From assembly GCA_038230295.1 (NCBI GenBank), contig JBBRNM010000002.1, positions 5,725-69,724 on the forward strand: a stretch of 64,000 nucleotides of DNA, given 5' to 3'. The notes beneath the pieces were generated by a model. That model had not been told where the DNA came from and did not search any database. It worked only from the letters and a program-made list of their open reading frames with translations. A program made the position numbers and the translations under genes. Position 1 is the stretch's first letter; the number at the start of each line of letters is the position of its first letter. The DNA is from Candidatus Limnocylindrales bacterium (GTDB lineage: Bacteria; Chloroflexota; Limnocylindria; Limnocylindrales; CSP1-4). Below are positions 24,618-61,351 of this stretch, one piece after another.

Positions 24618-25406
24618 TCAACCTCCGGTGGGCGGCGCATCGGGCGCTGCGGGTGCGGCGACGGCCTTGGCGGCGGGTTTAGCGGCGGCGAGTTTCGGTG
24701 CGGCGGTGGCGGCGGGTTTCGGTGCGGCTGTTGCAGCTGGCGCAGCTGGCGCAGCTGGTGCGGGCGCCGGCGCGGCCGGTGTCTTCTCTCCTGGTGTCGT
24801 TGCGGCGGGAGCGGCTGCCGATGCCGGTGCCGCAACGGCTGCCGGCTCGGCGACGCCTCCGTCGCTCTTCGTATTCGCCTGCGTCTCGGACTTCGGCTTG
24901 TGGGTCGAGGCGAGGGTGATGAACATCGACTTGCCCTCGAGGACGGGGGCTCGTTCGATGACGCCGTGATCCTTCACCTGGTCCGCGAACCTGTCCAGCA
25001 TCTTCCGACCCAGCTCCGGATGGGTGAGCTCCCGACCGCGGAAGCGGACGGTCACCTTGATCCGGTCGCCATCGGAGAGGAACTCCACCGCGCGATGAAC
25101 CTTCGTGTCGAAGTCCCCCGTGCCGATCTTCGGCGAGAGGCGGACCTCCTTGAACGTCACCGAGCGCTGTCGCCGCTTGGCTTCCTTTTCCCGCTTCGTC
25201 AGCTCGTACTTGTACTGGCCGAAGTCGAGGAAACGGGTGACCGGCGGGGCCGCCATCGGAGCGACCTCGACGAGGTCGAGGCCCCGCTCCTGCGCCATCT
25301 CGAGGGCTTGCGGCGTGGGCATGACGCCCAGCTGGTTTCCCTCCTCATCGATCACCCGAACCTGTGGGATCCGGATCATCTGGTTGACGCGCAGGTCTCG
25401 GCTGAT
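24618..25406 (-). CDS. infC: Translation initiation factor IF-3, probable ATC start, with a 95-aa Ala/Pro-rich C-terminal extension
   Basis: Motifs are ISRDLRVNQMIRIPQVRVIDEEGNQLGV, LDLVEV, FGQYKYE and KEVRLSPKIGTGDFDTK. GAGAGGG lies 8 nt upstream of ATC 25404-25406. infC conventionally uses a non-AUG start. Confidence 0.9.
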   Translation of the reverse strand: MSRDLRVNQMIRIPQVRVIDEEGNQLGVMPTPQALEMAQERGLDLVEVAPMAAPPVTRFLDFGQYKYELTKREKEAKRRQRSVTFKEVRLSPKIGTGDFDTKVHRAVEFLSDGDRIKVTVRFRGRELTHPELGRKMLDRFADQVKDHGVIERAPVLEGKSMFITLASTHKPKSETQANTKSDGGVAEPAAVAAPASAAAPAATTPGEKTPAAPAPAPAAPAAPAATAAPKPAATAAPKLAAAKPAAKAVAAPAAPDAPPTGG

Positions 25407-25486
25407 GGTGGCTGCCCTCTCGAACGGTTGATGCTGTCCACGACCCGAATCCCACGGCAAGGCCCTGGCCTCCCGGTCGCCGCGGG

Positions 25487-27369: not shown

Positions 27370-27650
27370 TTGCTCTCCAAGAATCGAAACGACCCTTCGT
27401 CCCGACAGGACGAAAGGCCGTGCCTTCCGCGGTTCCACCCGCCTTCACGATCGGTGGCCCGGCGATCCCGAACCCCGAGCGTGCGCTCGAGCCGCGATAA
27501 CGGGCGGACCCGGGCCGGTTCGCCGGCCGCTCACGGGTGGTCCCGAGCTTCCTCGACCGCCGGGCTTCCAGCCGTGGCCCGGCTCTCTGTGGATCGATCT
27601 CGATGCTCGGCGTGTCCCGATCGATGCGTTGGCGGCGACTATACCGCGGG
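27370..27650 (-). promoter_or_regulatory. T-box leader (Thr) of thrS, with candidate -10 box, Stem I, T-box motif and terminator hairpin
   Basis: On the minus strand, TATAGT lies at 27638-27643. AGAGAG is followed by a CCGGGC..GCCCGG hairpin with the distal loop CACGGCUGGAA. An internal loop reads G-ACC-A, a Thr codon followed by a purine. The T-box motif GGGUGGAACCGCGG lies at 27427-27440. A 10-bp hairpin, CCUUUCGUCC..GGACGAAGGG (27393-27417), is followed by UCGUUUCGAUUCUU and then the SD. Confidence 0.7.
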
Positions 27651-27679: not shown

Positions 27680-28327
27680 TCAGCCGCAGACGTAGGGATG
27701 GGGCGTGGGGTGCGCCGCCTTGGGATCGGCCGGGCCCTCGGAGGTGAAATCGGCGACGACCTGGAGCTTGGGCACCGTGCCGTGCGGCCCCTCCGAGGTC
27801 TGCAGGAACAGGCGCTCCGTCGTCGTATTGAAGGCCTGCGTGAGGTCGAGGGTGTGCTGGTTGACCTCGGCGATCCGATACAGGAAGCGGTAGTTGTCGC
27901 TCGTGTAGACCTGGACGATGTCGCCGATCAAACCGGCGCCGGCATTGATCCGAGAGGCGCTGAGGAGCGGCAGGAACATCCCCGCGCGAGCATGCGCGTA
28001 GAGGTAGATCGCAATGCCCTCACCGGGCTGGCCCAATTCCGGCAGGTAGAGAGCGACGTTGCAGAGTGGGAACGTTCCCTGGCTCGATTTCTGGAGCACG
28101 ATCGGCAGGTCGATGCCCAGGCGCTCGATGACAACCCGGGTCGCCACCCGCCCAGCTGGAAAGCTCGGACCCGGCGACGGGATGTCGGCCGTGGCGACGG
28201 GACTGGCGGTGGCCATTGGGCTCGCCGACGGGCTCGGCGAGGCCCCGGGAATGGCCGTCTCGAGCGAGGCCTGACCGCAGCCAACCACGAGGCCGAGGGA
28301 CAGCCCGACGAGCACCAGAAGACGCAT
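27680..28327 (-). CDS. Sortase-like lipoprotein with Ser at the TLxTC cysteine position
   Basis: 215 aa. The lipobox is MRLLVLVGLSLGLVVG-C, followed by a Pro/Ser/Ala linker. Then comes a sortase-like order of motifs: RVVIERLGIDLPIV, GIAIYLYAHARAGMFLPL (His), LIGDIVQVYTSDNYRFLYRIAEV and ERLFLQTSEG, where sortases have L-T-L-x-T-C. Only the last 215 codons of ORF 27680..29425 are used. Confidence 0.55.
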   Translation of the reverse strand: MRLLVLVGLSLGLVVGCGQASLETAIPGASPSPSASPMATASPVATADIPSPGPSFPAGRVATRVVIERLGIDLPIVLQKSSQGTFPLCNVALYLPELGQPGEGIAIYLYAHARAGMFLPLLSASRINAGAGLIGDIVQVYTSDNYRFLYRIAEVNQHTLDLTQAFNTTTERLFLQTSEGPHGTVPKLQVVADFTSEGPADPKAAHPTPHPYVCG

Positions 28328-28416
28328 CGCAGGCGAGCGGTGCGACCCTCGGCGGCGCCCGCCGAAGGGATGGGCCCGATCGGCAGCGGGCCGACAGGGC
28401 GTCGGGGACAGGCTCC

Positions 28417-29280
28417 CTATCGGCGCGAGCGCGTCCGACTGGTAGCGAAGCGGAGCGCCCCGACCAGGGTGATCGTGAAGACGAACATGAAGCCGAACAC
28501 CACCGGCAGGATCGCCGGTCCGCTGGTCCCCGTGGCCTCGTTGAGGGTGTCGGTCGCTGGCGGCGTTGCACCGCCACCGGAGTTGCTCGTGCCGGCCTGG
28601 CATCCGGCCGTCGTGATGACATTGGTGTCCAGGGTCACGGAGCCGTTCCGGGCCAGCGCCCGACCCTGCAGCCGTGCACCCGTCTGCAGCTTGATGGACG
28701 TCAGGGCCAGGATGGTCCCAACGAAGCGCGTGGATGGGGCCAGTGTCGCCGAGCTTCCGACCTTCCAGTAGACGTTGCAGGCCGAGGCGCCATTGATGAG
28801 GGTCACCTTGCTCGAGGACGCGGTGATCAGGGTGGACGCTGCCTGGAAGATGAACACGGCGTTCGGATTGCCCTGGGCGTCGAGCTTCAGGGTGCCCGTC
28901 AGACCGAGGGTCCCGGAGCTGTAGACGCCGGCCTTGAGGGTCTTGCCGCCGAGCTCCACCGGGACGGCCGTCTTCGGGGTGCGCCCGGCGGCATCGTTGT
29001 AGGCCGTGGTCAGGTCGTTCTGCGCCTTGATCGCCGTTGCGCTGGCGATGTTCTTGGCGCCGTGGAGCGTCACCGAGGCGAAGCCCGTCACGGAGCTCCC
29101 CGGGGCGAGCCCGACGCTGCCGGTGATCGTGGTCGGACCGGTATTCGTGATGGTCTGGCCCGCGAGAACCGCGAAGTTCGCGGCCGTCCCGAGTGCCACT
29201 CGAGGCTGGGCGGCCATCGCGGTGCCGGCCAGGGCAATGGTGAGAAATGCCGTCAGAGCGGTGGCTCCGAGGATCTTCAT
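28417..29280 (-). CDS. Secreted DUF3494 (ice-binding-like, beta-helix) protein with C-terminal TM anchor and basic tail
   Basis: AAGGGGA lies upstream of ATG 29280. The signal peptide is MKILGATALTAFLTIALAGTAMA-AQP. The DUF3494 signature is LGTAANFAVLAGQTITNTGPTTITGSVGLAPGSSVTGF. The C-terminus reads ..ATPPATDTLNEATGTSGP-AILPVVFGFMFVFTITLVGAL-RFATSRTRSRR. Confidence 0.8.
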   Translation of the reverse strand: MKILGATALTAFLTIALAGTAMAAQPRVALGTAANFAVLAGQTITNTGPTTITGSVGLAPGSSVTGFASVTLHGAKNIASATAIKAQNDLTTAYNDAAGRTPKTAVPVELGGKTLKAGVYSSGTLGLTGTLKLDAQGNPNAVFIFQAASTLITASSSKVTLINGASACNVYWKVGSSATLAPSTRFVGTILALTSIKLQTGARLQGRALARNGSVTLDTNVITTAGCQAGTSNSGGGATPPATDTLNEATGTSGPAILPVVFGFMFVFTITLVGALRFATSRTRSRR

Positions 29281-29483
29281 CGCGTGTTTCCCCTTGAGAT
29301 GCGAACGAACAGGGACGCATCGGCACGAGAAGATCCGGTGCGCCGTGATCGGCGCCACTGGACCGAATGCCCGCACTCGCTCCGAGGCGTCGGGCCAGTC
29401 TGGTGTCAGGAGGCCGCAATGTCATGACGGCGTGTCATCCGGCGGGCATTGCGCCGCCGACCTTCGTGGCTCAGAGAGGGGTG

Positions 29484-29560
29484 TGGTGGGCGACACTGGA
29501 CTCGAACCAGTGACCTCTTGCATGTCAAGCAAGTGCTCTAACCAGCTGAGCTAGCCGCCC
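29484..29560 (-). tRNA. tRNA-Val (anticodon GAC), CCA encoded
   Basis: GGGCGGCUAGCUCAGCUGGUUAGAGCACUUGCUUGACAUGCAAGAGGUCACUGGUUCGAGUCCAGUGUCGCCCACCA. The acceptor stem has 7 bp (one G-U). The anticodon arm is CUUGC / UUGACAU / GCAAG. The T arm is ACUGG / UUCGAGU / CCAGU. Confidence 0.95.
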
Positions 29561-29973: not shown

Positions 29974-30003
29974 GTCCGTGCTGGTCCGATTCAGGCCGCG
30001 GTA

Positions 30004-30303
30004 TCAGTCGATCTTGATCGTTTCCCGGCCCGCGTCCGGGCCTCCGGCGCGCGATTCCATCGCGTCGATGCGGCCGATCCAGAAGTCGACGATCGAACGC
30101 ATGCCGAGAAGCTGCTCCCGGCCTGCGTTCCGAAAGTGCCGGCTCGCCTCCGGCGGCATGACGTGATCGATCAGGTTGCGGCCGCGTTCGCGCATGCTCG
30201 GGTTGCCCTCGAGGCGGCTCAGCCGGTCCTCGACCTCCGCGAGGCGGTCGCTGGCTCCGACACTCGGGATCCCCGCCGAGCTTCGGCTGCGCGTCTCAGT
30301 CAT
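30004..30303 (-). CDS. Hypothetical 99-aa protein translationally coupled to the ArsA-like ATPase
   Basis: Its ATG overlaps the ArsA-like stop (ATGA at 30300-30303). The protein has no TM segment and includes LAEVEDRLSRLEGNP and HFRNAGREQLLGMRSIVDFWIGRID. I do not recognise a family. Confidence 0.5.
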   Translation of the reverse strand: MTETRSRSSAGIPSVGASDRLAEVEDRLSRLEGNPSMRERGRNLIDHVMPPEASRHFRNAGREQLLGMRSIVDFWIGRIDAMESRAGGPDAGRETIKID

Positions 30304-61275: not shown

Positions 61276-61351
61276 TGGCGCCCCCGGACGGATTCGAACC
61301 GCCGACGCCAGCCTTAGGACGGCTGCGCTCTATCCACTGAGCTACGGGGGC
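61276..61351 (-). tRNA. tRNA-Arg (anticodon CCT), CCA encoded
   Basis: GCCCCCGUAGCUCAGUGGAUAGAGCGCAGCCGUCCUAAGGCUGGCGUCGGCGGUUCGAAUCCGUCCGGGGGCGCCA. The acceptor stem GCCCCCG/CGGGGGC has 7 bp. The anticodon arm is CAGCC / GUCCUAA / GGCUG. Confidence 0.95.

Follow-up and report, generated by a model that had tools for sequence, protein, structure and literature searches.

A candidate surface-display cassette of a DUF3494 protein and a sortase-fold lipoprotein with serine at the catalytic cysteine position in a Candidatus Limnocylindria bacterium

The two-gene locus

The locus described here lies within a stretch of 64,000 nucleotides (the window; contig JBBRNM010000002.1 of assembly GCA_038230295.1, 5,725 to 69,724) from a soil bacterium of the Candidatus Limnocylindrales (Chloroflexota), and all positions are given in window numbering. 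It consists of two genes that are read from the minus strand. Gene A (28417-29280) encodes a secreted DUF3494/ice-binding-like beta-helix protein of 287 residues, the putative substrate, and gene B (27680-28327) encodes a lipoprotein of 215 residues whose sortase-fold domain belongs to a family with serine in place of the sortase cysteine. The best explanation for the pair is that A and B constitute a two-gene surface-display cassette. Both open reading frames are located where the initial annotation had placed them, with the start codon of B 89 nucleotides past the stop codon of A. A regulatory scan found neither a terminator-like nor a promoter-like site in the spacer (28328-28416, minus strand), and the two genes are therefore probably co-transcribed. 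The sole terminator-like match of the scan lies inside the transmembrane-coding region of A and is at chance level.

Protein A and its C-terminal tail

Protein A belongs to the DUF3494 family. Its residues 38-223 match the Pfam Ice_binding/DUF3494 profile (PF11999) over profile positions 1-208 of 208 with 201.6 bits against a cut-off of 28.7 (E 1.5e-59), and it also matches the NCBIfam ice-binding protein model (E 1.2e-29), below that model's cut-off. A Sec-type signal peptide can be read from the sequence (residues 1-23; 29212-29280, minus strand), which ends with AMA before AQ, and the aligned homologs of A share the hydrophobic N-terminal segment. The tail starts with GGGATPPATDTLNEATGTSGP, continues with a hydrophobic stretch of 21 residues (residues 256-276), and ends with RFATSRTRSRR (residues 277-287). 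A hydropathy scan located this hydrophobic helix together with the Arg-rich stop-transfer tail at 28420-28515 (minus strand), and helix and basic tail are common to all B-linked A homologs. Signal peptide, hydrophobic helix, and positively charged C-terminus together make up the architecture of a sorting signal, and the earlier description of a tripartite tail without LPXTG or PEP motif is correct. LAXTG, NPQTN, and LPXTA motifs are likewise absent from A, which reads PPATD. A PEP-CTERM/exosortase-type signal was considered for A and rejected, as no motif directly adjoins the helix and the neighbourhood showed no exosortase-like gene.

The initial annotation had regarded LNEATG (28528-28545, minus strand) as the nearest equivalent of LPXTG. 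This proposal had to be given up because LNEATG is part of a variable linker, and the same position reads VGQVAN, LLSSDT, VAPDDV, LAPTDG, etc. in homologous tails. The conserved element is [L/P]PATD[T/A], which is PPATDT in A (residues 240-245; 28546-28563, minus strand) and sits six residues upstream of LNEATG. This LPXTG-like motif is the putative cleavage or recognition site, and the tail stretch around it, GGGATPPATDTLNEA, is a peptide candidate for B. In the homologs the consensus is [L/P]-P-[A/P]-T-D-[T/A], placed 12-20 variable residues ahead of the helix. The motif recurs in the B-adjacent A homologs of the loci L002, L007, L061, L131, L144, L162, L163, L164, and L168, and the B-linked A homologs keep PxTD while the flanking linker varies.

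Of the best 120 homologs of A, 84 carry a transmembrane helix in the tail. P-x-T-D-[TA] is present in 35 of these 84 tails and P-x-T-D in about 42, while 13 carry [IV]PNT[SA] and only four a canonical LPXTG or LAXTG. The A-type motif can be likened to LPXTG because the proline and the threonine are kept, the threonine in most of the tails read. The glycine of LPXTG is replaced by aspartate (or serine or alanine), and a glycine following the threonine is rare among the A homologs (P0323, P0336). In many A-type tails (L131, L168, P0315, P0396, and others), PxTD is followed by another Thr-Asp element (LAPTD or AAVTDPV) ahead of the helix, which looks like a motif duplication.

Protein B is a lipoprotein with a sortase fold

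Protein B starts with a lipobox (LVVG-C17; 28277-28291, minus strand), read from the sequence, which is followed by a Pro/Ser/Ala-rich linker (residues 18-59; 28151-28276, minus strand). Both had been recognized before, and the sortase-like motifs that had been quoted for the remaining domain are all present: RLGIDLPIV, YAHARAGMF (with His112), GDIVQVYT, LFLQTS (with Ser178), and PKLQVV (with Lys187). The Pfam Sortase profile (PF04203) matches residues 66-179 with 25.3 bits (E 1.4e-5), just under the gathering score of 26.6, and the relatives P0121, P0122, P0239, P0250, and P0268 exceed this threshold with 26.7-60.7 bits. The metagenomic relatives P0121 and P0122 are tandem proteins with two Ser-sortase domains, each of which has its own LQTSEG and C-terminal cysteine.

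An AlphaFold2 model of B built on 29 homologs has a core with predicted local distance difference test scores (pLDDT) above 90. In a Foldseek comparison with this model, which had been suggested as a check of the sortase assignment, the best 50 PDB matches are all sortases of the classes A, C, D, and E, with a probability of 1.00, E-values of about 1e-7, and target-normalised TM-scores (TMt) of up to 0.75. The predicted fold is thus the eight-stranded beta-barrel of the sortases (PF04203/MEROPS C60).

An hhalign comparison of the B family profile (151 sequences) with class F sortases covered 130 columns at a probability of 72% (E 3.4e-5) and paired YAHAR with GHVD, LQTSEG with LITCGG, and Lys187 with the N/R that precedes (I/L)VVFA. 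A shallower alignment (A1) compared by hhalign to single sortase sequences gave no usable match. Sequence searches against PDB chains yielded no significant match with B alone and nothing better than a class C sortase (E 1) with the family profile. In a BLASTP comparison of B with a canonical DUF3494-linked sortase LQTSEG was aligned with LITCEG at a non-significant E of 0.71. None of the NCBIfam models matches the B family, and the class F model NF033748 (cut-off 166 bits) gave no hit for B; the best score of the family against this model is 22 bits (E 1e-4) for a tandem relative.

Serine and lysine at active-site positions

According to the model and the alignments, B is a sortase-fold protein with His112, Ser178, and Lys187 at the positions of the sortase histidine, cysteine, and arginine. 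His112 (YAHAR; 27992-27994, minus strand), the equivalent of the catalytic histidine at the end of beta4, directly follows the model strand 106-111 and aligns to the histidine of the class F GH(V)D. Ser178 (LQTSEG, codon TCG; 27794-27796, minus strand) directly follows the model strand 172-177 and aligns to the cysteine of LITCGG, the catalytic cysteine of the sortase TLxTC. Lys187 (27767-27769, minus strand) opens the model strand 187-199 at the start of beta8 and aligns to the N/R of (D/E)(N/R)(I/L)VVFA, the arginine position of sortases. The class F sortases aligned here often carry an asparagine at this position. The substitutions at the cysteine and arginine positions, which had been proposed from the order of motifs, therefore agree with both the profile alignment and the strand order of the model.

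Conservation was counted in the 150 best representatives of 50%-identity clusters, with denominators that vary by column. Histidine is found at position 112 in 145 of 148 representatives. Position 178 is serine in 127 of 136 representatives, cysteine in three, and glycine or proline in five, and position 187 is lysine in 116 of 131 and arginine in two. The three residues and the whole QTSEG block are conserved to 89-98% across the 150 clusters, and the catalytic cysteine and the arginine of the sortases are rare in this family. Because Ser178 is conserved across thousands of family sequences it is not a product of chance; a single-base error had already been called unlikely from the TCG codon alone. 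From the pattern in the family, Ser178 is a family trait under family-wide selection and not a one-off mutation. None of the five variants with glycine or proline at position 178 has Lys187 (Fisher p = 7.6e-6, without correction for phylogeny). Such co-variation agrees with a functional Ser/Lys(/His) unit in most family members and with true pseudo-enzymes in a minority. The relatives with cysteine at position 178 (LQTCE in P0239, P0250, and P0268) pass the Pfam Sortase threshold and tie the B family to ordinary sortases. The contigs of P0239 and P0250 are too short for an informative gene context.

Two further cysteines are nearly invariant. Cys89 (PLCNVA; 28061-28063, minus strand) occurs in 140 of the 144 representatives counted, and Cys214, which is part of the C-terminal extension (27686-27688, minus strand), in all 121. 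The model predicts two-residue beta-bridges at 88-89 and 212-213, and a disulfide between Cys89 and Cys214 would probably staple the C-terminal extension to the barrel. The Cys178-bearing relatives already have both cysteines, and the pair therefore predates the switch from cysteine to serine. A Cys2His2 metal site formed by Cys89, Cys214, His206, and His210 was considered and rejected, since His206 and His210 are conserved family-wide to only 33-48%.

Family size and genomic context

B belongs to a large family. At least 4,479 relatives at E<=1e-3 are present in the 90%-identity protein collection, almost all of them from Candidatus Limnocylindria, and 610 among the representatives of the 50%-identity clusters. 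In genomes, homologs were found at 295 loci, nearly all in metagenome-assembled genomes (MAGs) of Limnocylindria/Chloroflexota. Their source annotations are 'hypothetical' or a generic 'sortase'. Searches of a literature library returned no paper on Ser-bearing sortases, Limnocylindria sortases, or DUF3494-sortase cassettes, in line with the earlier supposition that the pair is undescribed, and B's family is a large, conserved, undescribed enzyme family.

The gene context was read at 80 genomic loci with a B homolog, and the lipoprotein clade was extended with metagenome loci. In a neighbour-joining tree without support values, the B of the window falls into a separate clade of lipoprotein forms. 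The relatives in this clade have LLAAC-Q lipoboxes, whereas the nuo-linked forms have an uncleaved N-terminal transmembrane anchor. In the lipoprotein clade, a DUF3494 gene is adjacent at 11 of 15 informative loci (the window, L002, L007, L061, L131, L144, L162, L163, L164, L166, and L168); the four loci without this link are L001, L011, L161, and L167. The expectation that homologs of A and B are linked elsewhere was thus confirmed for this clade. The linked pairs reside in at least five genomic contexts, namely next to tRNA-Val/thrS, SufBD/PIN, def-fmt/PriA, Amidase_2, and SpaA-like genes, and the pair at L163 is convergent and not tandem. Because the contexts vary and one pair is convergent, functional coupling explains the adjacency better than inherited synteny.

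Outside of this clade the picture is dominated by the nuo operon. About 65 of the 80 genomic homologs are found at its end, and a DUF3494 gene is upstream at only three of the 80 loci. The nuo-linked paralogs adjoin nuoL-M-N (L003-L080; e.g. L046 7084-7884 and L038 7719-9449), and convergent CorA and major facilitator superfamily (MFS) transporter genes follow them. At about 29 of the 80 loci the nuo-linked paralog lies beside a divergent gene for a membrane-anchored AhpC/TSA-Redoxin protein with a CxxC motif, and in some genomes this pair is inverted as a unit. It is possible that the redoxin neighbour is linked to the invariant Cys89-Cys214 pair. The initial annotation had called B dedicated to a neighbouring substrate, which applies to the lipoprotein paralog clade only and not to the homologs at the nuo operon, most of which have no DUF3494 gene nearby.

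Comparison with known sorting systems

Sortases attach proteins to the bacterial cell wall, and textbooks and MEROPS define them as cysteine transpeptidases. The best structural matches of B are class A/E housekeeping sortases (Staphylococcus aureus SrtA; SrtE of Streptomyces and Thermobifida; PDB 7f87, 7cfj, 9m4u, 5cuw, and others). Like B, these are membrane-tethered and extracytoplasmic, and their substrates resemble A in that a short motif, a pentapeptide, precedes a transmembrane helix with basic residues behind it. However, the sequence identity to B is only 15-21%, the motifs of the class A/E substrates end in glycine, and the class A/E enzymes have His-Cys-Arg, as according to a review all sortases do (PMC8225981).

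In sequence and gene order, B can be compared with the class F sortases (NF033748, IPR042001; prototype Propionibacterium acnes SrtF), a class for which the physiological functions are still described as unknown (PMC13251363). Both have the eight-stranded sortase barrel, and the class F element P-x-R-L-x-I-P-x-I-G-V-D-x-P corresponds to ATRVVIERLGIDLPIV in B. In both, the histidine follows beta4, the nucleophile position follows beta7 within L-x-(T/Q)-(C/S)-(G/E)-G, and beta8 is hydrophobic with (I/L)VV(F/V)A. Also, both are encoded directly downstream of a DUF3494 gene with a tripartite signal. B differs from class F by serine for cysteine, by lysine at the Arg/Asn position, by an additional pair of invariant cysteines, by about 20 further residues that extend the C-terminus, and by its lipoprotein anchor in place of an N-terminal transmembrane helix. 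The putative signal also differs, being PATD in A and LPXTG, LAXTG, or x-TGDGS in the partners of class F sortases.

The arrangement of a DUF3494 gene with a sortase gene is widespread. Of 80 metagenomic loci with a DUF3494 gene, at least 20 continue directly downstream, on the same strand, with the gene of a canonical Cys-sortase, and the DUF3494 partners of canonical sortases end in LPXTG, LAXTG, or x-TGDGS signals. Three such sortases were compared with the NCBIfam class F model: two attain its cut-off (E 2e-59 and 8e-51), and the third has class F as best match (E 8e-32), below the cut-off. DUF3494-linked sortases of other phyla score 110-200 bits against NF033748. Thus, A-B is the Limnocylindria version of a widespread module of a DUF3494 substrate and a dedicated sortase, a version in which, as read from the sequences, both the nucleophile of the enzyme and the last residue of the putative signal are changed. 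In the DUF3494 partners of class F sortases, the element before the helix is often the non-LPXTG G-[AG]-[VL]-x-[TA]-G-D-G-S, and another DUF3494 group ends with KPPAFTG directly before the stop codon and has no helix (loci L084-L101, L146, and L148; L090, L094, L113, and L121).

Exosortase, archaeosortase, and rhombosortase systems (PEP-CTERM, PGF-CTERM, and GlyGly-CTERM) share with A-B a signal of motif, helix, and basic residues, and the enzyme is often encoded beside its substrate. In contrast to B these enzymes are polytopic membrane proteins of unrelated folds, and their motifs abut the helix. No exosortase, archaeosortase, or rhombosortase gene was seen beside the A-type genes at the loci examined. 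With respect to a serine nucleophile, the penicillin-binding DD-transpeptidases, type I signal peptidase, and LexA provide examples of serines activated by lysine or histidine. In serine transpeptidases and Ser-Lys dyad peptidases, an acyl-enzyme ester is resolved by an amine or by water on the outside of the membrane. Their folds are unrelated to that of B, and the comparison is a functional analogy, by which the proposed chemistry would be feasible.

Function of the A-B pair

The reading that we favour, at somewhat less than an even chance, regards B as a catalytically active, sortase-like His-Ser-Lys enzyme with A as its substrate, processed at PATD either by transpeptidation to the envelope or by hydrolytic release. 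In the mechanism that we infer, from catalysis and cleavage site to acceptor and disulfide, A would leave the cytoplasm through Sec, and its C-terminal helix and Arg-rich tail would keep it in the membrane. B would be tethered to the external side of the membrane by its lipid anchor and flexible linker, and its sortase groove would bind PATD. Ser178, activated by His112 and/or Lys187, would attack the bond after the invariant threonine (Thr243), and an acyl-enzyme ester would result. If this ester were resolved by an amine of the envelope, A would become covalently anchored (transpeptidation), and if water took the place of the amine, A would be released. The C-terminal extension that is specific to the family would be kept next to the groove by the Cys89-Cys214 disulfide. 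The transmembrane-anchored paralogs at the nuo operon could represent a housekeeping version of the same enzyme.

Several observations weigh against an enzyme that processes A. Substitutions of cysteine by serine and of arginine by lysine cripple S. aureus SrtA, and an active serine form would therefore need compensating changes. Between the motif and the helix lie 12-20 residues, a greater distance than is typical of LPXTG signals. The majority of the 80 genomic B homologs adjoin the nuo operon and have no substrate-like (DUF3494) neighbour. A-type genes at L083 and L140 have no B gene within 1.6-2 kb, and a B paralog encoded elsewhere could therefore serve them. The closest relative of the window, L001, keeps B while gene A is precisely missing at the syntenic site; the MAG of L001 holds a second A-B pair elsewhere (L002). 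Also, no second protein class with a PATD tail was found in about 0.9 Mb of related loci or by an insensitive tail-profile search. A scan of these 0.9 Mb for a transmembrane helix with a basic tail detected only A-type proteins and unrelated transporters. The search with a profile of the tail alone, which had been proposed for finding further substrates, was run and returned six short fragments; it is uninformative on other substrate families, because protein A itself was not recovered.

The replacement of both the nucleophile and the arginine could also mean that B is a pseudo-sortase, in which fold and groove are kept and catalysis is lost. B would then bind the PATD tails of A and other clients non-covalently, as a receptor, chaperone, or retention factor, or it would regulate another enzyme. 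Equivalent mutants of SrtA are essentially inactive, glycine or proline at position 178 exists and is evidently tolerated, and the threonine of the signal is not followed by the canonical glycine. However, dead enzymes usually drift, which is not the case for the histidine, serine, lysine, and QTSEG block of the B family, and the joint absence of Lys187 in the five Gly/Pro178 variants is what would be expected if serine, lysine, and histidine formed a working unit in the majority. We therefore regard a loss of catalysis as rather unlikely, although it comes closest to the data among the alternatives to an active enzyme.

A further alternative is that A is a type I membrane-anchored protein whose tail is never cleaved, and that B has an unrelated envelope role tied to the neighbourhood of nuo, thioredoxin-like, CorA, and MFS genes. 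The adjacency of A and B would then reflect co-regulation or inherited synteny. The predominance of the nuo-linked homologs, often beside the CxxC redoxin-family membrane protein, and the retention of B without A in L001 agree with this explanation, and a linker, a helix, and a basic tail are generic for single-pass membrane proteins. It does not account for the fact that the pair recurs, in either orientation, in five or more unrelated contexts, nor for a conserved Thr-centred proline motif within an otherwise variable tail. In addition, the order of a DUF3494 gene followed by a sortase gene is widespread with genuine class F sortases and LPXTG/LAXTG-type tails. Unrelated roles of A and B are thus improbable.

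That B is still a cysteine transpeptidase, with Cys89 or Cys214 reaching the pocket as nucleophile and Ser178 in a supporting role, is very improbable, because both cysteines, although as conserved as the putative triad and in the case of Cys214 located on a family-specific extension placed against the barrel (pLDDT 81-93), coexist with Cys178 in P0239, P0250, and P0268, are situated in the predicted beta-bridges as expected of an extracytoplasmic disulfide, and in the case of Cys89 align ahead of the class F AGWY element at no active-site position; this possibility, which had been raised against a serine-type enzyme, is therefore not upheld.

Extending the active-enzyme reading from B to its family, we tentatively propose that the Limnocylindria proteins may form a seventh, non-cysteine sortase class. 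Its members would be His-Ser-Lys transpeptidases that cleave after the threonine of an LPATD-type signal and attach DUF3494 and possibly other proteins to the envelope, with a housekeeping paralog at the nuo operon and a dedicated lipoprotein paralog.

Surroundings of the locus

The A-B unit is bounded upstream by a tRNA-Val gene (29484-29560). Between the stop codon of B and thrS, a full-length but sub-threshold match to the T-box leader RF00230 was found (27403-27633, minus strand; Rfam, 43.4 bits with a gathering score of 93, E 1.2e-7). Given this match, thrS is considered to be transcriptionally separate from A-B, and the match suggests that thrS is under tRNA-sensing control in this Chloroflexota lineage. 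Apart from this match, the Rfam scan gave only tRNA-Val and a weaker, sub-threshold small RNA match within the T-box region, and nothing was found in the leader of A.

The relative L001 comes from a Candidatus Limnocylindrales MAG, and its DNA is about 89% identical to that of the window. At this identity, blastn aligned L001 7459-7956 to window 29980-29480 and L001 7989-12337 to window 28339-24025. The segment of 1.14 kb that is missing in L001 between tRNA-Val and B comprises gene A and its leader (28340-29479, minus strand). In the comparison to L001, the flank of tRNA-Val thus contains two indels (window 28340-29479 and 29980-30004 versus L001 6157-7988), one of them the 1.14-kb gene A segment, which L001 lacks, and the other a 1.3-kb segment, which the window lacks. 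Judged from this alignment, the tRNA-Val flank looks like a hotspot of gene gain and loss.

Two other features of the window are not connected to the A-B pair. The product of the translation initiation factor IF3 gene (24618-25460, minus strand) continues past IF3_C for about 95 C-terminal residues of Ala/Pro-rich, low-complexity sequence, the Pfam domains stopping at residue 184 of 280. Between 54000 and 60000, the G+C content drops from about 0.70 to 0.61-0.65 over about 6 kb, adjoining a tRNA-Arg(CCT) gene (61276-61351), and this stretch may be acquired DNA.

Implications

A clade with His-Ser-Lys in the place of the sortase triad would show whether the sortase scaffold supports serine chemistry. 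If serine chemistry fails, the family would show how a whole lineage re-uses a dead sortase. If B is active, it would be a thiol-independent, oxidation-resistant ligase with the new motif LPATD, which would be orthogonal to the sortase A tools. The DUF3494 'ice-binding-like' proteins are tied here to class F sortases, whose functions have so far been reported as unknown (PMC13251363). The A-B pair gives a first handle on the display of surface proteins in the Limnocylindria, an abundant class of soil bacteria.

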